Made by a program: the position numbers and the translations under genes | The notes under the pieces: model-generated | Told to the model about the DNA's origin: nothing | Seen by the model: the letters and a program-made list of their open reading frames with translations, nothing else | Database searches by the model: none | IMG/VR virus record: IMGVR_UViG_3300025138_000013 | Source of the DNA: a virus | DNA length: 64,000 nucleotides | Direction: 5' to 3' (one strand) | In this document: positions 25,087-56,503 of the stretch, one piece after another | Layout of the letters: each line of letters opens with the position of its first letter | How positions within the stretch are numbered: position 1 is the first letter of the stretch

Positions 25087-25117
25087 AAAAAGAGGGACGT
25101 TTATCGTCCCTTTTTTT
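25087..25117 (+). terminator. Intrinsic terminator
   Basis: AGGGACG-TTTAT-CGTCCCT followed by T-run. Confidence 0.85.
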
Positions 25118-25151
25118 GGCTTACAAGAAAGTAAAAAGAATAAATAATTGC

Positions 25152-25448
25152 ATGAATGAGATATTTGAGTTGATAGGTGAAGTGGGAGCCCCAATTGCTG
25201 GAAGCATAGTCATGGGATTTTTTATCTTTACTGTTATCAAACAAATCCTTGAGGGTGTTGTTGACGATATAAAAACGTTAACGATGTTCTGCAAGTCCTT
25301 AGAAAACCGTGCGAGAACAATGTCAAATGAAATGATTAAGATTGACATGTTAGTCTCGTCAGCACTTGAATTGAGACCCGATATAGAACGTATTGCACGT
25401 GCAGAAAACTTTATAGAAGACGGTAAGCTCGACGTAAGAAGGGATTAA
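25152..25448 (+). CDS. Small single-TM coiled-coil protein, first gene of curli operon
   Basis: TAAATA-N5-ATG; GAPIAGSIVMGFFIF TM. Confidence 0.7.
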   Translation: MNEIFELIGEVGAPIAGSIVMGFFIFTVIKQILEGVVDDIKTLTMFCKSLENRARTMSNEMIKIDMLVSSALELRPDIERIARAENFIEDGKLDVRRD

Positions 25449-25449
25449 C

Positions 25450-25767
25450 ATGGAAACTGAAGTTGTTGAAGTTGTAGCAAATACAGACCCCACGTTAGTT
25501 ACTCTACTTAATGAATATGGTTTTCCTATTGTCATGATGGTTGGACTAGGATATTTCATTTATTATATTTGGTGGTTCGTAGGTGAAAAACTAGAACCCG
25601 AAATAGAGAAACAACATTTTGCACTCATCAAAGTGATTGACCAAGTCAGAATGTTAGACCAAGATTTAATTCGTTTACAACAGAAGGTAGACGTGGTTCT
25701 CGAATATAAAGAGAACGCAAAAAAGAAAGAGGTTATGAATGCAGAAAATAGCAGCGATAATAATTAG
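25450..25767 (+). CDS. Small single-TM coiled-coil protein, probable paralogue of previous gene
   Basis: YGFPIVMMVGLGYFIYYIW; RMLDQDLIRLQQKV aligns with RTMSNEMIKIDMLV. Confidence 0.7.
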   Translation: METEVVEVVANTDPTLVTLLNEYGFPIVMMVGLGYFIYYIWWFVGEKLEPEIEKQHFALIKVIDQVRMLDQDLIRLQQKVDVVLEYKENAKKKEVMNAENSSDNN

Positions 25768-26200
25768 TGTTTGTTTTGCACTTAGTGTAAGTGCAGATGA
25801 AATTGTACACAAGTTTAAGAGTCCATCCTTTAATGGGATAGGAATATCTGCACATTATCTTACGATTGAGAACCAAGAAAAGTCAAGACGTGACAAGATA
25901 AAGCAAGACCTTGAAGATGCAATTGCAAAAGCAGATAGAGAAGCACAGAATACAACGCTTGCAAAATTTTTAAGAAACGTAGAGAGTAGAATCTACGCTC
26001 AGTTAGCAAAACAGTTAGTGGAGAATATGTTCTCTAATGGAACTGCAGCTGCATACGGTACATTTGTAATGGAAGGAAATACTGTTACATATGAAAGAAT
26101 GACTGGGGAAGATGGGGTTGATTTCATACGATTAACAATTGTTACTGAAGATGGGACAACAACGGTTTTAGATATACCAGTTGGTACAGGAAGCTTCTAA
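25739..26200 (+). CDS. csgF: Curli assembly component CsgF
   Basis: Signal peptide, mature N-terminus DEIVHKFKSPSFNG, FLRNVESRIYAQL, TTTVLDIP; directly before csgG. Confidence 0.85.
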   Translation: MQKIAAIIISVCFALSVSADEIVHKFKSPSFNGIGISAHYLTIENQEKSRRDKIKQDLEDAIAKADREAQNTTLAKFLRNVESRIYAQLAKQLVENMFSNGTAAAYGTFVMEGNTVTYERMTGEDGVDFIRLTIVTEDGTTTVLDIPVGTGSF

Positions 26201-26203
26201 ACA

Positions 26204-27112
26204 ATGAAAAATATACTAACAGTAGGACTACTAGTTCTACTCATGAGTGGATGTGCTAGTATTCCTAGCATGACAGACTCATGTGAATCTCTTGTTATGT
26301 CAAGAGTCGGCGAGTGTATTGAGAAGGCAGAAGTAGTAAATATACCTACTTATAGAGAGTTGGCTGATTTACCACCAGCGGATACGATGCCAGTTGTTGC
26401 AGTATATGCTTTCCAAGATAAGACAGGACAACGTAAGAGTAAAGATGGAATTGCATCTTTCTCTACTGCAGTAACCCAAGGTGCAGAATCATTTTTGATT
26501 GATGCCTTGAAGACTGCTGGAAAAGGTAAATGGTTTAGAGTAGTAGAAAGAACAAGTCTCGATGCACTTGTAAGAGAACGTCAGATTATTCGTTCTACTA
26601 GAGAAGACTTTGCAAACCAAGAAGGTAATGAAGATGCCCCAACAGGTATTCAACCTTTGCTGTTTGCTGGAATCCTACTGGAAGGTGGGATTATTGGTTA
26701 TGATACTAACATTGAAAGCGGTGGACGAGGCGCAAGATACTTAGGTATTGGTTCAAGTGTGTCCTACCGTAGAGATGTTATCACTGTATCGTTGAGAGGA
26801 ATATCAACTTTAACTGGTGAGATTTTACTGAATGTACAGACTCAGAAGACGATTCTAAGTACAGGCGGTGGTTATGATGTATTCCGCTTCGTTGATATGG
26901 ATACGAAGTTAGTGGAAATGGAAGATGGTAAAGCAGAGAATGAAGGAGTTACAAGAGCAACTCGTTCTGCAATTGAACTTGCCGTCTTGGAACTAATATA
27001 CCAAGGACACGATAGAAGTTTTTGGGTAATTAAAGATGGACATCGTCACCCACATGGAAGTCATGGTAGGAACGAACTACATCAAATAGAGGAAAAACAG
27101 GATGAAGAATAA
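26204..27112 (+). CDS. csgG: Curli secretion channel lipoprotein CsgG
   Basis: Lipobox LMSGC, VAVYAFQDKTGQRK, STAVTQG, WFRVVER..LDALVRERQIIR, GGIIGYDTN, GGRGARYLGIG. Confidence 0.95.
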   Translation: MKNILTVGLLVLLMSGCASIPSMTDSCESLVMSRVGECIEKAEVVNIPTYRELADLPPADTMPVVAVYAFQDKTGQRKSKDGIASFSTAVTQGAESFLIDALKTAGKGKWFRVVERTSLDALVRERQIIRSTREDFANQEGNEDAPTGIQPLLFAGILLEGGIIGYDTNIESGGRGARYLGIGSSVSYRRDVITVSLRGISTLTGEILLNVQTQKTILSTGGGYDVFRFVDMDTKLVEMEDGKAENEGVTRATRSAIELAVLELIYQGHDRSFWVIKDGHRHPHGSHGRNELHQIEEKQDEE

Positions 27113-27830
27113 ATTATTACTCATTATGTTAGCATTAGGAATGTCGGGGACAGCATTTGCTGGAGCTGATGATAACGAAGTATGGTTACAGCAAAGTGGT
27201 ACTGCATTGACATTGAACATAACTCAAAAGGGTTATGGAAACAAAGTTGGTGGTAATGACTTTAGTGGAACATCAATAGATATGCTATTGACTGGTGCTA
27301 CTAACAGTTTAACATTAGTACAATTCGGTGACAGTAACAAACTATACGGGCCTTTCATTGCAGATTCTTCAACAGTAAATTTAACTTTTACTGGTGACTC
27401 TAACTCAATGGATTGGAACGTTGGTTATCAAGGTTCAGCAGATAACTTAAATATGTTAGGAGCTGTTACAGGTTCATCTAACACATTTGATATTGATGTT
27501 GGATACGACCAGTCTGCAGAATACTTAAACTGGGACTTAGTAGTAGGTGGTTCAAGTAATGTATTCACTACTAAAATAGATAGTGACAATGCTGTTTGGA
27601 ATTGGACTGTTACAGGTTCAACAAATGACATCAATACTATACAGGCAGACGCAACAGATAATAAAATTACTGCAGTCTTAACTGGTTCAGGCAATGATAT
27701 AGATATCATTCAGAAATCGGGTTCAGATACAGGTTGTCCAAGTGGTCAATCATGTAGTGGTATTATTGATGTAAGCTTCGTGACTTCTAATGCAAATATT
27801 GACATCGTTCAAAAAGACGATAACGATTAA
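27102..27830 (+). CDS. Curlin-like beta-repeat secreted protein (CsgA/B-like)
   Basis: Signal peptide (..AFA), repeated hydrophobic-x-hydrophobic-x-Q/T-x-G-x-x-N units, C-terminal Cys pair. Confidence 0.75.
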   Translation: MKNKLLLIMLALGMSGTAFAGADDNEVWLQQSGTALTLNITQKGYGNKVGGNDFSGTSIDMLLTGATNSLTLVQFGDSNKLYGPFIADSSTVNLTFTGDSNSMDWNVGYQGSADNLNMLGAVTGSSNTFDIDVGYDQSAEYLNWDLVVGGSSNVFTTKIDSDNAVWNWTVTGSTNDINTIQADATDNKITAVLTGSGNDIDIIQKSGSDTGCPSGQSCSGIIDVSFVTSNANIDIVQKDDND

Positions 27831-28929
27831 TTTTCTTCTGATTGGTTCACTTGCAATTGCAGCTGAACCAATTGGTGAAATAGTCGAACAGAAAGGATAC
27901 GCGGGTTTACAGAGAGACGGTTCACAAACCATTCTCTCTGCATCCGAGTTACCCGATGTGCTGATGTATGATACAGCACAAACCGTAAACGGTAGAATGA
28001 AAATCCAGTTCAAAGGAACTGAAGAGTTGGATTTAACAGAACATACCAAGGTTTGGATAGACGAGGTTTATTACGACCCCGACCCATCCAAGTCCAAAAT
28101 GGCCATAAGAATGGCCCAAGGCACCGCCCGATTTGCTTCGGGTTTTGGTGGAAAAATTAAGAAAGCTAACATAAATATAACTACCCCGACTGCACAGATA
28201 ACAGTCAACGGCACCGACTTCACTACAAGTATTGATGAAATCGGAAGGTCACTTGTTATATTGCTGCCTGATAAATGGGGAGCTCCTTCGGGAAGTATTT
28301 TAGTTAGTAATGCAGGCGGTGAAGTATTATTAGATGAGGCCTATCAAGCAACTATGGTTTCTACATATGACTCATCACCAACTAAACCAGTAGTGGTTAA
28401 TGGGATTACACCCAGTTTAATTGACAACTTATTCATTGTCAGTCCACCCGACGAGGTGAATGAACAAGTTGCAGAAGAACAAAGAAGTAACGAGAATGAT
28501 AGTAACAATGTTCTTGATGTAGATTTCTTAGAGTTCAATGACCTAGAAGAAAATTACTTTGAGGATGATGAATTAGAATACACGGAACTCGACAGAGACT
28601 TATTAGATGTCGATTTCCTACAGGATTTACTAGATGTTGTCTTGGATATTGACCGTAAGGTTGGTATTGATAGAGAAGTATCTAATGCCTTCGGAGTGGT
28701 TCGTATTGACGGAACTCTACCAGGCTTTGATAAAGACACTCAATACAATACAATTGTAGACAAGGGTCTTGGTCAGATATGGTTCTACAGGGAAGTGAAT
28801 GGAATTATTTCTATTAGACTCCCTATATATGCTCAAGCAAGTATTAGAACTATAACAGACGAAAAAGAGTCACTAATTAGGGTGGGTGATGGTTCGTCTC
28901 TAAATATCACCATCACACAAACAAACTAG
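27790..28929 (+). CDS. FecR-domain exported protein with acidic linker
   Basis: DTAQTVNGRMKIQF, GTARFASG, ITTPTAQITVNGTDF, GSILVSN; start uncertain. Confidence 0.8.
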   Translation: MQILTSFKKTITINFLLIGSLAIAAEPIGEIVEQKGYAGLQRDGSQTILSASELPDVLMYDTAQTVNGRMKIQFKGTEELDLTEHTKVWIDEVYYDPDPSKSKMAIRMAQGTARFASGFGGKIKKANINITTPTAQITVNGTDFTTSIDEIGRSLVILLPDKWGAPSGSILVSNAGGEVLLDEAYQATMVSTYDSSPTKPVVVNGITPSLIDNLFIVSPPDEVNEQVAEEQRSNENDSNNVLDVDFLEFNDLEENYFEDDELEYTELDRDLLDVDFLQDLLDVVLDIDRKVGIDREVSNAFGVVRIDGTLPGFDKDTQYNTIVDKGLGQIWFYREVNGIISIRLPIYAQASIRTITDEKESLIRVGDGSSLNITITQTN

Positions 28930-28937
28930 GAGAATAT

Positions 28938-29084
28938 ATGAATATCATAGAAAAGTTCCGCTCATGGCATGAAACTCAAATCTTTGGATTTCAAAAAGCT
29001 ATGAGACTAGATGACTACCACATGATGTGGTTGGCATTCGGTGAGGGAGTTGTCTTATGTTTATTATTTCAATGGTTATTTTAA
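28938..29084 (+). CDS. Membrane microprotein (48 aa, not in ORF track)
   Basis: AGGAG SD; MNIIEKFRSWHETQ...WLAFGEGVVLCLLFQWLF. Confidence 0.7.
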   Translation: MNIIEKFRSWHETQIFGFQKAMRLDDYHMMWLAFGEGVVLCLLFQWLF

Positions 29085-29090
29085 ACTAAA

Positions 29091-29894
29091 ATGAAAAGAA
29101 TTTTATCATTATTAATAATGCTTCCCTTGTTAGTCATTGCAGATGATGACAACAAGGTTGATGTTAACACTACTGGGAGTCAGTCTAATGATTCCCTAGT
29201 GTTTAATCTAACACAAATAGGTTATAACAACGATACCGTCTTTACAATCGGTGGTTCCAATAACACATTTCTAATTAAACAAGAAGGAAACAACAACGAG
29301 ATTTCCTTCGTAGATTACTTTGGTTCGGGAGAAACTTGGGGTGGAGACCTCGATGGTAATAACAATGCATTACACTTCGAACAAAATTGTACTCGTGGTT
29401 CCAGTTGTGGTAAATCTGATATAGGATTTCACATTCAAGGAGATGGTAACTCAGTTCGATGGGGTCAAGGAAAGGTTCTATCAAACGCTTCAGATGAGAC
29501 ATTTTCACTCGATTCGGATGAGGGTGGTAATCATAAACTAAACCTAGACATTCACGGTAATAATAATTCAGTCGCAGGGTTTCAAAGAAATGGTGCTCAA
29601 AATCAATACTCAGGTCACACTGCAACCTTATACATCTATGCAAATGACAATTCACTTTGGGTGAAACAAGAGAATGATGGTGCAAAGACTTTAAACTACA
29701 TTAGTAGAACAGATGATAATACAGGACATATAGTTCAAATGGGTAGTGGGAGTCACACTTCAACCATAAATCTCACTGGTACATACCCATCAACTTTAAA
29801 TTTATTGCAAAACTCAAGTACAAATCAATCATATACACTCACACAAAACTGCGTTACAGTAGGTGGATGTAGTGTTACAATAACTCAAGAGTAA
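29091..29894 (+). CDS. Second curlin-like beta-repeat secreted protein
   Basis: Signal peptide; TQIGYNN, KQEGNNN, DGNNN...EQ, HGNNNSV..FQ repeats; ends CVTVGGCSVTITQE. Confidence 0.72.
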   Translation: MKRILSLLIMLPLLVIADDDNKVDVNTTGSQSNDSLVFNLTQIGYNNDTVFTIGGSNNTFLIKQEGNNNEISFVDYFGSGETWGGDLDGNNNALHFEQNCTRGSSCGKSDIGFHIQGDGNSVRWGQGKVLSNASDETFSLDSDEGGNHKLNLDIHGNNNSVAGFQRNGAQNQYSGHTATLYIYANDNSLWVKQENDGAKTLNYISRTDDNTGHIVQMGSGSHTSTINLTGTYPSTLNLLQNSSTNQSYTLTQNCVTVGGCSVTITQE

Positions 29895-31753
29895 TGTACT
29901 CTTGGAAAGCGTGTCTTGTTACGATACTTGCCCTCTTTGCATTAAAGGTTACTAATCCTTATTTCATAGAGAACATATCTTGGACATGGTTCGATTACTT
30001 ACATCAACAACAAGGAGAATTTTATGTGGATGACATCGTTCTTGTCGACATCGACGAGAAGTCTCTTGAAACTTTTGGACAATATCCTATACGTCGTGGT
30101 ATTTACCGTGACCTTCTTCTTGATACCCATTATAGCAATACTCATATTTTTGGTATGTTATTTTCTAAACCCGACAGAGACCCCACACAAGACGCGATAT
30201 TTGCAGAGGGATTAGTCAACCGTCTCACAATCCTTGGAGCTGCTCCAACATCACAAACTCAAAAAGGTTCTGCACCATTCGTAGGTAACTCAACGTTTGG
30301 GGGTGGTAATCCTAAAGATTTTCTGTGGAACTTCGATGGAATTGTATCGCCCATCGCGATGCTGAAAGATAATACTTATGGGGTTGGAGTTGTGACGGCT
30401 ACTCCAGCTGTCACTGGAACACCAAATTTTGATGGGACTACGCGGTCTGTACCCCTATTGGTTACGGCAAACGATGAAGTATATCCCTCACTAATGTTAG
30501 AAGCTTTACGAGCCTTACGTAACGAACCAAGTTATCAAACTAAAATTACTCCCGAGACTGGTGTAGAGTGGGTTCGGATGGGAAGAGACAAACCGATAAC
30601 CACCACTCCAACCAGTGATGTAATGATATCCTATTGGAACAAATTCCATAGAATTTCTGCAGTAGACTTACCCGATTCTAATTTCGAGAATAAAATACTT
30701 GTATGGGGTTTGACTGCAGAGGGTTTGAATAATCCAGTTTCAACCCCAAGGGGAGTAATGTATCCCCATGAAGTGCAAGCGAACCTGCTCCAAACCGTTT
30801 TGACAGGAGTTCAAATACAACAATCCTACTATCTTGAATCACTAGAGTCTGTTCTTCTTCTGTTAGTTCTGCTAATGATAGTTGCGATGGTTTACAAGCT
30901 TCCCACAGTTCTTTCGGGGACAGGGTTTCTATTACTTGTAGTATGCCAGATTGGCGGGAGTTATTATATTTGGACTTCAGAGCTCGTTCTTTTCGATACC
31001 TTCTTTTCATCGTTGGCCTCCTTAGTAGTTTTCGGTCATGCTTCGTTCAACAAATACTATGTGACTTTCCAAGAAAAGCAACAAATAAAGAAGCAGTTCC
31101 AAAAGTATTTATCTCCCGACATGATTGAAGAGCTACAAAAACACCCCGAAAAATTGAGACTTGGTGGAGATAGAAAGGAGATGACCTTCATGTTTATGGA
31201 CATCATCGGATTCACTCCTATAAGCGAACATTACATGAAACAGGATGACCCCGAAGGATTAGTAGAATTGATTAACAAATTCCTTGATATGCAGACTAAG
31301 ATAATCCTAAATAATGGTGGAACCATCGACAAGTACATGGGCGATTGTATAATGAGTTTTTGGAATGCTCCTATGGAGTGTAAGAACCATGCAGACCTTG
31401 CCGTTAAATCAGCACTGGAAGTGCTAGAAGCAACAAAGGAATTAAATGAAGAACTTAAACCTCTCGAACTGCCTCCTATTAATGTTGGGATTGGTATCTC
31501 TACAGGCGAATGCATCGTTGGAAACATGGGGTCAGAACTTAGATTTGACTATTCCGTCATTGGAGATGCAGTTAACCTCGGAGCTAGACTCGAAGGACAA
31601 ACGAGAAATTATGATGGGGTGGACTTGTTGTTATCACAAAGAACTTATAAACAGTGTAAGGTTGGAGCATACATTGAAGTCGATAGAATACACGTCAAGG
31701 GGAAAAGTGAAAAGGTCACTATCTACACTCCAATTAAAGGAACCCATAACTGA
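29894..31753 (+). CDS. CHASE2-domain class III adenylate cyclase
   Basis: TM, IVLVDIDEKSL..FGQYPIRR, DGTTRSVPL, TPRG..YPHEVQANLL (CHASE2), 3 TMs, FMDIIGFT, DKYMGDCIM, FDYSVIGDAVNLGARLEG; Lys and Asp ATP-specifying residues. Confidence 0.93.
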   Translation: MYSWKACLVTILALFALKVTNPYFIENISWTWFDYLHQQQGEFYVDDIVLVDIDEKSLETFGQYPIRRGIYRDLLLDTHYSNTHIFGMLFSKPDRDPTQDAIFAEGLVNRLTILGAAPTSQTQKGSAPFVGNSTFGGGNPKDFLWNFDGIVSPIAMLKDNTYGVGVVTATPAVTGTPNFDGTTRSVPLLVTANDEVYPSLMLEALRALRNEPSYQTKITPETGVEWVRMGRDKPITTTPTSDVMISYWNKFHRISAVDLPDSNFENKILVWGLTAEGLNNPVSTPRGVMYPHEVQANLLQTVLTGVQIQQSYYLESLESVLLLLVLLMIVAMVYKLPTVLSGTGFLLLVVCQIGGSYYIWTSELVLFDTFFSSLASLVVFGHASFNKYYVTFQEKQQIKKQFQKYLSPDMIEELQKHPEKLRLGGDRKEMTFMFMDIIGFTPISEHYMKQDDPEGLVELINKFLDMQTKIILNNGGTIDKYMGDCIMSFWNAPMECKNHADLAVKSALEVLEATKELNEELKPLELPPINVGIGISTGECIVGNMGSELRFDYSVIGDAVNLGARLEGQTRNYDGVDLLLSQRTYKQCKVGAYIEVDRIHVKGKSEKVTIYTPIKGTHN

Positions 31754-32045
31754 TTTTCAATGGGGTACATTTGTATCACTTCAACTTCTTGATATGTACA
31801 CTACCTATAAAGGATTGCAATACGATTGTGTATTTGAAACGAATCCTCTCTTTGGTGAAAGACCTTCAGTAATGACAATGGGTGTAAGAAAGATTGTTAT
31901 ACTTGCCCCAGCAATAGTTTCTGAACAGAACAATCAAACATTAAGTATAGAAGACATGAGAGATATTAACCTTCTTATGGGTTTAGTTGTCCTTAACAAT
32001 GCAAGTATTTCAAACAAATCATCAAAAAGATGCAATAAATTGTAA
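31446..32045 (+). CDS. Hypothetical exported/membrane protein overlapping the cyclase 3' end
   Basis: C-terminal LQLLDMYTTYKGL...ETNPLFG domain lies mostly beyond the cyclase stop; true start uncertain. Confidence 0.55.
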   Translation: MKNLNLSNCLLLMLGLVSLQANASLETWGQNLDLTIPSLEMQLTSELDSKDKREIMMGWTCCYHKELINSVRLEHTLKSIEYTSRGKVKRSLSTLQLKEPITDFQWGTFVSLQLLDMYTTYKGLQYDCVFETNPLFGERPSVMTMGVRKIVILAPAIVSEQNNQTLSIEDMRDINLLMGLVVLNNASISNKSSKRCNKL

Positions 32046-32051
32046 AAACCC

Positions 32052-32079
32052 CTTGAAATTTCTAAATCAGTCCCCATAT
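32052..32079 (+). promoter_or_regulatory. Sigma32 (RpoH) heat-shock promoter
   Basis: CTTGAAA - 13 nt - CCCCATAT upstream of hsp20. Confidence 0.85.
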
Positions 32080-32096
32080 ATGCTATATATACTATT

Positions 32097-32149
32097 GTAA
32101 TTGCCTTCGGGGATTACATAACATAACTTGCTTAATAAAGGAGAAAACT
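32097..32149 (+). promoter_or_regulatory. ROSE-like RNA thermometer leader
   Basis: UUCG-capped 5' hairpin, then CUU(G)CUU-AAUA-AAGGAG pairing over the SD with a bulged G. Confidence 0.7.
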
Positions 32150-32587
32150 ATGACAAGTAAACAGCTCGGAGACTTCGATGTCTTCAATTTCGGGAAATCA
32201 TTCCCATTCGCAATCGGGTTCGACAGAACTCTTCAACTATTAGAACGTGCCAATCAGTCACCGACTAATACAAACTATCCACCTTACAATATTGTAAAAC
32301 ACGATGCAGAGAACTTCAGTATCGAACTTGCATTAGCTGGATTTGATAAAAAGGACATCACAATCTCAAAAGAGAAAGAGGTTCTTAATATCGAAGGTAA
32401 ACAAAAGGAAGGGGAAAACCTTGAGTACGTCCATAGAGGACTTGCAGCTCGTTCATTCAAAAGAACATTCACACTTGCAGACGACATTGTCGTTAAAGGT
32501 GCAGACATGAAGAATGGTATTTTGAGTGTATCTTTGGAAAGGATTATACCCGAAGAAGATAAACCCCAAAAAATCAAAATTTCTTAA
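32150..32587 (+). CDS. hsp20: Small heat-shock protein Hsp20 (IbpA-like)
   Basis: NYPPYNI, ELALAGF, HRGLAARSFKRTF, NGILSV. Confidence 0.96.
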   Translation: MTSKQLGDFDVFNFGKSFPFAIGFDRTLQLLERANQSPTNTNYPPYNIVKHDAENFSIELALAGFDKKDITISKEKEVLNIEGKQKEGENLEYVHRGLAARSFKRTFTLADDIVVKGADMKNGILSVSLERIIPEEDKPQKIKIS

Positions 32588-56427: not shown

Positions 56428-56503
56428 GCTCCCATAGCTCAGCTGGTAGAGCAACTGATTTGTAATCAGTAGGTCAACCGTTCGAATCGGTTTGGGAGCT
56501 CCA
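56428..56503 (+). tRNA. tRNA-Thr (UGU)
   Basis: Acceptor GCTCCCA/TGGGAGC, D-arm GCTC/GAGC, anticodon arm ACTGA-TTTGTAA-TCAGT, T-arm AACCG-TTCGAAT-CGGTT, encoded CCA. Confidence 0.97.

Follow-up and report, generated by a model that had tools for sequence, protein, structure and literature searches.

The window, a 64,000-nucleotide (nt) stretch of viral DNA (IMG/VR record IMGVR_UViG_3300025138_000013), belongs to a T4-like phage and carries, at positions 25093-32045, a cassette of ten plus-strand open reading frames (ORFs) arranged as a single packed unit. In order, these encode two transmembrane proteins (TM1 and TM2), the curli secretion proteins CsgF and CsgG, a first curlin-like protein (curlin 1), a FecR-domain protein, a microprotein of 48 amino acids (aa), a second curlin-like protein (curlin 2), an adenylate cyclase with a CHASE2 domain and a 199-aa gene that overlaps the cyclase gene. 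Neighbouring genes are separated by gaps of +1, +3, +8 and +6 nt or overlap by 29, 11, 41, 1 and 308 nt. The ten-gene parts list and the tight packing set out in an earlier account drawn from the letters alone (the sequence-only reading) are borne out, with all ORFs present on the plus strand and matches in Pfam and PHROG. Its start of the unit at 25141 has to be moved, as this position lies inside the late promoter box and out of frame, the ATG of the first gene being at 25152. We argue below that the cassette appears to join a curli-type exporter, or type VIII secretion system (T8SS), to a FecR/CHASE2 sensor pair of bacterial origin. Its features are as follows.

25093-25117, plus strand: intrinsic terminator at the end of the upstream regA-side genes (AGGGACG and CGTCCCT pair as the stem around the loop TTTAT, and a T-run follows)
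25139-25146, plus strand: T4-type late promoter box AATAAATA, 5 nt ahead of the first ATG; presumed promoter activity
25152-25448, plus strand: TM1, 98 aa, one membrane helix (hydrophobic segment 7-37) and a C-terminal helical region; phrog_18771, 5e-24
25450-25767, plus strand: TM2, 105 aa, paralogue of TM1 by alignment, one membrane helix; phrog_18771, 2.7e-24
25739-26200, plus strand: CsgF with signal peptide; Pfam CsgF, 1.7e-12 (above cut-off); phrog_35372, 1e-38
26204-27112, plus strand: CsgG, predicted outer-membrane lipoprotein pore with lipobox LMSGC; Pfam CsgG, 9.3e-49
27102-27830, plus strand: curlin-like protein 1 with signal peptide and about eight repeats (S/T)GxxNxhxhxQ; AlphaFold solenoid and profile links
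27790-28929, plus strand: exported FecR-domain protein, 379 aa; Pfam FecR, 8.6e-9; phrog_37870
28938-29084, plus strand: 48-aa microprotein whose C-terminal part forms a membrane helix; kept by 46 of 49 close relatives
29091-29894, plus strand: curlin-like protein 2 with signal peptide; Pfam Curlin_rpt, 19.8 bits against a cut-off of 20.7
29894-31753, plus strand: CHASE2 class III adenylate cyclase; Pfam CHASE2, 1.4e-29, and Guanylate_cyc, 2.1e-17
31446-32045, plus strand: 199-aa gene in the +1 frame, starting 308 nt inside the cyclase gene; signal-peptide-like start, weak match to DUF5658 (0.018)

Conservation of the module among phages

A near-identity DNA search matched no isolate phage. 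Protein searches recovered the cyclase and CsgG in the Pelagibacter phage HTVC008M and in four genomes of the Methylophilales phage Melnitz, where the genes stand in the same order, namely two hypothetical proteins of ~93 aa, CsgF, CsgG, curlin, FecR, curlin and cyclase, and where the counterparts of the module genes show 24-47% identity by tblastn. In IMG/VR we found 291 relatives of the cyclase, at least 592 of CsgG and 426 clusters of the FecR-type protein. To gauge linkage we used two samples, one of 49 close viral loci whose upstream flank measures at least 5.2 kb (the window clade) and one of 21 loci with at least 6.5 kb past CsgG, obtained in a scan seeded with the Melnitz CsgG (the second clade). 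In the window clade TM2, CsgF, CsgG, curlin 1, FecR, curlin 2 and the cyclase occur at all 49 loci and TM1 at 48; in the second clade curlin 1 and FecR occur at all 21, the cyclase at 20 and a detectable curlin 2 at 17. The order is the same at all 49 window-clade loci, at 20 of the 21 second-clade loci and in HTVC008M and Melnitz. The sequence-only reading had staked itself on genomic linkage among relatives; this linkage is very strong, so the reading does not fall on that ground.

In a quick tree, rooted at the midpoint only, all viral cyclases fall into a single group apart from 78 bacterial homologues (Shimodaira-Hasegawa-like approximate likelihood ratio test, SH-aLRT, 100). The DNA polymerase of the window is 96% identical to that of a 146-kb IMG/VR contig and 45-47% identical to those of HTVC008M, Melnitz and cyanomyophages; by its sequence, the window phage represents a third T4-like lineage that is far from cultured phages. 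A myophage-type locus, L258:5745-16531, carries TM1, TM2, CsgF, CsgG, curlin, FecR and curlin, with no cyclase within 9 kb downstream.

The signals ahead of the first gene are conserved as well. The terminator and late box noted in the sequence-only reading are present, and in ~35 distinct relatives the hairpin and T-run are kept while the stem sequence varies, and a (T)ATAAATA box stands at a constant distance from the ATG. This motif is the T4 late promoter consensus, and in most relatives the box reads TATAAATA. The interval from the late box to the first ATG (25139-25154) contains no Shine-Dalgarno sequence. Since the box is only 5 nt from the ATG, T4 spacing would place the transcript start at or next to the ATG, which would give a leaderless or near-leaderless late mRNA. 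The remaining TATAAATA boxes in the window lie farther upstream of their genes.

The module as such had been discovered before. Clusters of csgF and csgG were described in pelagimyophages together with a 'sibling capture' proposal by Zaragoza-Solas et al. 2020 (PMC7029224), and csg genes in Melnitz together with the proposal of a lysis-timing pore by Buchholz et al. 2022 (PMC9004378). Wittmers et al. 2022 (PMC9599517) reported the entire module in podo- and myophages as 'HK', CsgF, CsgG, CsgA/B, FecR, a second CsgA/B and adenylate cyclase. In their survey it was present at every one of the 65 GOV2.0 stations and also appeared in metatranscriptomes, and they took FecR and the cyclase for putative regulators. 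CHASE2 goes unmentioned in all three papers (PMC7029224, PMC9004378, PMC9599517). The parts list is thus a rediscovery, and the idea of a relay is a sharper form of a published suggestion.

The exporter and the FecR/CHASE2 pair

Because CsgG bears a lipobox, because signal-peptide-like starts are found and because the cyclase combines membrane helices with a CHASE2 and a catalytic domain, the cassette is predicted to span the cytoplasm, inner membrane, periplasm and outer membrane. A reach over these compartments had been claimed from the outset, and as a prediction it holds, on the grounds of lipobox, signal peptides and membrane helices. CsgG aligns with Escherichia coli CsgG (3x2r) at 3.3e-45, retaining the constriction Phe, with Asn changed to Ser and Tyr lost. 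The sequence-only reading had also remarked that CsgE, CsgC and CsgD were not to be seen. For the first two the remark can be extended, as searches for CsgE and CsgC/CsgH gave no match among the cassette ORFs or in five long relatives (69-81% complete); CsgD was not searched for. Factors of the CsgE and CsgC type are also missing from many non-gammaproteobacterial systems (PMC9599517).

Curlin 1 has no match in Pfam and does not reach Curlin_rpt. Its AlphaFold model is an all-beta solenoid with a predicted local distance difference test score (pLDDT) of 75.6, for which Foldseek returned nothing in the PDB at E <= 0.001. In VIA-align the model pairs with Pontibacter korlensis CsgA (8c50) at Z 16.8, with 20% identity and a root-mean-square deviation of 8.8, and with E. 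coli CsgA (8enq) at Z 10.6, amid many beta-helices. Since SufD-type beta-helices tie with CsgA in this comparison, the modelled fold alone is no proof of membership in the curlins. Orthologues extend the evidence: both curlin 2 proteins, of HTVC008M and Melnitz, and curlin 1 of Melnitz exceed the Curlin_rpt cut-off of Pfam, and a hidden Markov model (HMM) of the viral curlins matches curlins that adjoin bacterial csgG. Curlin 2 is the most variable gene of the module, with 30-40% identity where the cyclases are 71-90% identical. The second curlin of HTVC008M (gp018, L001:6639-7961), annotated in its record merely as a hypothetical protein, has an N-terminal PA14 domain ahead of the repeats (27.7 bits against a cut-off of 24), a layout that is compatible with an adhesive surface fibre.

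The FecR-domain protein consists of a signal peptide, the FecR domain (66-152), an acidic linker and a beta-rich C-terminal domain of ~90 residues. It ends in ...NITITQTN, with curlin 1 ending in ...NIDIVQKDDND and curlin 2 in ...SVTITQE. The corresponding C-terminal pattern [ILV][TDSN][ILV]xQx(1-5) is found in just three of the 227 ORFs of the window, which are curlin 1, FecR and curlin 2, and the terminal strand motif is present in HTVC008M and Melnitz too; it could serve as a docking or secretion strand. The C-terminal domain was detected in phage-type proteins of ~375-380 aa alone (the 426 clusters, on contigs of up to 177 kb), and this part of the protein has no match in the protein atlas. 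The bacterial FecR partners of cyclase homologues possess the FecR domain and often an acidic tail, and do not have the C-terminal domain. The idea that this domain as a whole is a curlin repeat was dropped, as hhalign detects no similarity between the FecR and curlin 1 families and the terminal motif alone is shared. The FecR domain weakly matches the Leptospira surface adhesin Lsa33 (3.7e-5).

This protein, a relay in the sequence-only reading, is not one of the FecIRA type: it has neither an anti-sigma domain nor a membrane anchor, Pfam finds PF04773 alone and the N-terminus is a signal peptide. Moreover, none of the ten ORFs of the cassette is recognised by Pfam as an extracytoplasmic function (ECF) sigma factor or as a TonB-dependent transducer. 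In its domain make-up it is of the exported FecR-domain type that adjoins CHASE2 sensors in bacteria.

By hydropathy and Pfam, the cyclase starts with a membrane helix (residues 7-25), followed by a periplasmic CHASE2 domain of ~285 residues, helices at ~311-382 and a cytoplasmic catalytic domain at 428-609. The catalytic domain aligns with Pseudomonas aeruginosa CyaB (3r5g, 2.5e-30) and Synechocystis Cya2 (2w01). It has the metal-binding D436 and D484, K480 at the position of the nucleotide-selecting Glu/Lys of Cya2, N561 and R565; paired with the Lys is S554, at the alignment position that a Thr occupies in CyaB. The sequence-only reading was therefore right about both metal Asp residues, the Lys, the Asn and the Arg, and the specificity pair is Lys/Ser and not the Lys/Asp that it had named. 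With this pair the enzyme looks like a subclass IIIb adenylate cyclase. D436, K480, D484, S554, N561 and R565 are retained in 55 of 56 viral sequences, the residue set appears competent and synthesis of cyclic AMP (cAMP) is predicted. The Melnitz cyclase (L002:7826-9874) has Asp at 554 and Ser at 561, unlike the 55 other viral copies, and could therefore deviate in activity or in substrate.

The nearest bacterial homologues of the cyclase (n=80) align over the full length at 30-35% identity and come mostly from Alphaproteobacteria, with some from SAR86. HMMs built from the viral proteins detected CsgG, CsgF or curlin within 10 kb at none of these 80 loci. A FecR-domain gene lies within 10 kb at 24 of the 80, often directly upstream or divergent, and Pfam confirmed FecR on four such neighbours. 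At eight alphaproteobacterial csgFG loci neither FecR nor a CHASE2 cyclase was found within ~10 kb; in five csgFG genomes Pfam CHASE2 and FecR are on contigs other than that of csgG, and FecR stands 1-2 kb upstream of three of the five CHASE2 matches. As the bacterial FecR and CHASE2 genes adjoin each other and lie apart from csgFG, the phage module is best read as one in which a T8SS and a sensor pair derived from bacteria have come together. Within the sampled loci, the joined form was seen in phages only.

The small proteins of the cassette are less readily placed. TM1 is orthologous to gp011 of HTVC008M and gp97 of Melnitz, and TM2 to gp012 and gp98. The label 'HK' (histidine kinase) given to such proteins by Wittmers et al. 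(PMC9599517) finds no support, as none of 14 members matched a family in Pfam or NCBIfam even with E values of up to 1 allowed and the two proteins measure 98 and 105 aa; a profile search of the PDB returned coiled-coil noise only and no kinase domain. In the protein atlas TM1 meets viral clusters without assigned function alone, and a weak match of TM1/TM2 to a holin family (phrog_4898, 0.009) is not significant. The 48-aa microprotein went undetected in HTVC008M, Melnitz and the second clade and is thus confined to the window clade. HTVC008M encodes, between TM2 and CsgF, a 41-aa protein with a C-terminal membrane helix (gp013, L001:3429-3554); it and the microprotein may be analogous small membrane parts at different positions of the module.

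The 199-aa gene, listed in the sequence-only reading as an overlapping exported protein, is real. In 60 distinct relatives its frame runs without a stop from a conserved ATG, with a start that resembles a signal peptide, and in five relatives without its downstream part, where hsp20 follows directly after the cyclase, the same stretch contains 4-8 stops; the overlap is therefore maintained by selection. Within the overlap synonymous-site diversity comes to 0.29-0.31, while most other segments of the cyclase lie at 0.34-0.49. As this drop is modest and the membrane-helix segment is lower still, the diversity test is not decisive; the stop-codon control is. The lowest value, 0.235, falls in cyclase residues 301-400 (30794-31093), in the membrane helices. 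The 199-aa gene is missing from HTVC008M, Melnitz and the second clade, and so ranks by its distribution as an accessory outside the core of the module.

Upstream of the cassette lie genes for the gp45 clamp, the gp44/62 clamp loader and RegA, and downstream those for hsp20, a peroxiredoxin and a DNA methyltransferase. Rfam has no family inside the cassette and none, ROSE included, at the gathering threshold in 32052-32152, upstream of hsp20, where a short divergent element could escape. The sole Rfam match in the window at the gathering threshold is a tRNA-Thr with anticodon TGT (56428-56503).

A proposed mechanism and its rivals

We propose, with a probability of about 0.5, that the late operon builds a curli-type exporter and its fibres, and that the FecR/CHASE2 pair is tied to this exporter via the FecR tail, such that cAMP tracks the state of secretion or of the envelope. 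The late promoter ahead of the first gene would drive one translationally coupled operon late in infection. The CsgG lipoprotein and CsgF would then form an outer-membrane channel, through which the two curlin-like beta-solenoid proteins would cross and give rise to curli-like fibres on the infected cell. To this exporter would be joined the exported FecR-domain protein and the CHASE2 adenylate cyclase. In the periplasm the C-terminal domain of FecR would most likely bind either the curlins or the channel made by CsgG/F, and FecR would also act on the CHASE2 domain, as is presumed for its bacterial relatives, so that the cAMP output of the cyclase would follow secretion or the envelope state. 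As no phage cAMP receptor was found, this cAMP would act on host proteins. Fibre formation, the contacts of FecR with the curlins and with CHASE2, and the output and target of cAMP are what we infer here. A flow of information from the surface to cAMP is plausible and, as suggested in the sequence-only reading, it might have a part in lysis timing or CRP control.

Several observations weigh against this proposal. No clumping of Melnitz-infected cells was seen (PMC9004378). Podophage modules with FecR often have no cyclase (PMC9599517) and the locus L258 keeps FecR without one, so FecR can work without the cyclase. In S. meliloti (Sinorhizobium) the FecR-domain neighbour is dispensable for signal perception (PMC5498481). 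Past the terminal motif FecR and curlin 1 share no profile similarity (hhalign probability 0.5), and the AlphaFold model of FecR (pLDDT 43) is too poor for a fold search. The transition-state Asn is a Ser in the Melnitz cyclase, and no phage protein that binds cyclic nucleotide monophosphates (cNMP) was found in the five long relatives. A box 5 nt from the ATG would also imply a near-leaderless mRNA.

The same terminal motif, common to FecR and both curlins, can be taken to mean that FecR is itself a cargo of CsgG, an adhesin at the fibre end or on the surface that attaches to the curlins by its terminal strand, with the cyclase being a separate host-takeover enzyme that raises cAMP when it meets an unrelated periplasmic cue. 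The weak Lsa33 match of the FecR domain would fit such an adhesin, the adhesin-type PA14 domain on curlin 2 of HTVC008M points to surface-binding fibres, and FecR is constant in the viral module where the cyclase is only frequent (PMC9599517), with L258 as a further instance. Yet the nearest bacterial cyclases are often beside FecR without curli genes, which argues that FecR and CHASE2 cooperate. Furthermore, at 379 aa and with a folded FecR domain the protein is large for the narrow CsgG channel, which passes unfolded chains. We regard the cargo explanation as rather unlikely.

A more specific form of our proposal involves a switch of partners, in which the FecR tail is held on unsecreted curlins or on CsgG/F, and its release or capture, upon the exit of subunits or a disturbance of fibres or envelope, alters cAMP, so that host physiology or the timing of the end of infection tracks the surface. 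This is tentative and, as framed, unlikely; if true, it would provide a ligand logic for a CHASE2 domain for the first time, and likewise the first virus-encoded secretion-coupled cAMP switch.

Alternatively, FecR and the cyclase could stand upstream of secretion, with a periplasmic or environmental cue such as iron leading to cAMP that turns on the exporter or host genes. A scheme of this kind was proposed by Wittmers et al. (PMC9599517), who cite that cAMP-CRP feeds into csgD control in E. coli. In one late operon with one promoter box, however, self-control by a co-transcribed cyclase makes little sense, and the five long relatives have no cNMP-binding protein. No CsgD-like regulator was found either (CsgD was not specifically searched for), nor does the cassette show a partner for iron transport, an ECF sigma factor or an anti-sigma domain. 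An upstream role of the pair is accordingly doubtful.

More doubtful still is the proposal that CsgG/CsgF form a gated lysis-timing pore, pinholin-like or secretin-like, with the other genes as parts of the gate (PMC9004378). The late promoter box, the weak holin match of TM1/TM2 and the partly altered constriction residues of CsgG would suit it, but an outer-membrane pore cannot depolarise the inner membrane, the holin match is not significant, and the retention of two curlin-like subunits and CsgF in every lineage points to real fibre export. Finally, a channel by which the infected cell would take up nutrients or cofactors, iron compounds being suggested by FecR (PMC7029224, PMC9599517), is very improbable, for while the periplasmic plug CsgE was not found in the five long relatives, this explanation leaves the curlins, CsgF and the cyclase unaccounted for and the FecR domain without any FecIRA partner in the cassette.

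On the proposal that we favour, an exporter with fibres and a tied FecR/CHASE2 pair, the module is predicted to supply infected cells with a surface-fibre exporter and a source of cAMP. It is widespread in the ocean, being present on hundreds of IMG/VR contigs, and to our knowledge the published hosts of HTVC008M and Melnitz have no curli genes. New here are the joining of a T8SS to a pre-existing bacterial FecR/CHASE2 pair, a FecR protein that bears the terminal strand of the curlins and, within our sample, the restriction of this fusion to phages; these three additions turn a vague notion of regulators nearby into a testable model. Sensors with a CHASE2 domain are common in bacteria, and no ligand of the domain is known. 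With its ten genes, the phage operon is compact enough for transfer to E. coli and is perhaps the easiest system in which to study control of CHASE2 by FecR, and L258, as a natural variant without the cyclase, may be informative on the role of FecR itself.

Comparison with known systems

The closest counterparts of the cassette are the marine-phage T8SSs, such as HTVC008M gp011-gp019, Melnitz gp97-gp104 and those of HTVC023P-type podophages, which have homologous genes in the same order. The module of the window lies between regA and hsp20 and not between gp32 and tail genes, and the window clade adds the 48-aa microprotein and the gene overprinted on the 3' end of the cyclase gene.

With bacterial curli systems (E. 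coli csgBAC/csgDEFG and alphaproteobacterial loci) the phage module shares the CsgG lipoprotein pore and CsgF, and it has candidate subunits with curlin repeats. In the alphaproteobacterial csg loci CsgG is 43-49% identical to the phage CsgG, and the order CsgF-CsgG-curlins is held in common. By way of difference, no CsgE or CsgC was detected in the five long phage relatives, and the phage curlins diverge strongly, with scores that do not exceed the Pfam cut-off. The likeness to FecIRA signalling is limited to the Pfam FecR domain, as the phage cassette is without an anti-sigma domain, anchor, ECF sigma factor or transducer.

Among rhizobial systems, we take the gene for the S. meliloti FecR-domain protein SMc02177 to adjoin cyaD1. 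SMc02177 and the CHASE2 cyclase CyaD1 make up a pair comparable to that of the phage (PMC5498481, PMC13001267), and SMc02177 belongs to the cAMP/Clr regulon driven by CHASE2 cyclases (PMC5498481). The rhizobial CHASE2 cyclases perceive their signal by way of the outer-membrane barrel NsrA and not of a CsgG channel.

The exported FecR/CHASE2 pairs of bacteria, typified by the Burkholderia BiofilmReg operon and P. aeruginosa PA4035/PA4036 (PMC5192318), likewise have a FecR protein with a signal peptide encoded upstream of a CHASE2 sensor. Bacterial CHASE2 sensors and the phage cyclase are built alike: a single helix precedes the CHASE2 domain in the periplasm, and more helices lead to an output domain in the cytoplasm. 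In contrast to the bacterial pairs, the phage pair is interleaved with curli genes, the microprotein and curlin 2 standing between FecR and the cyclase, and the phage FecR has an extra C-terminal domain that ends in a curlin-type strand.

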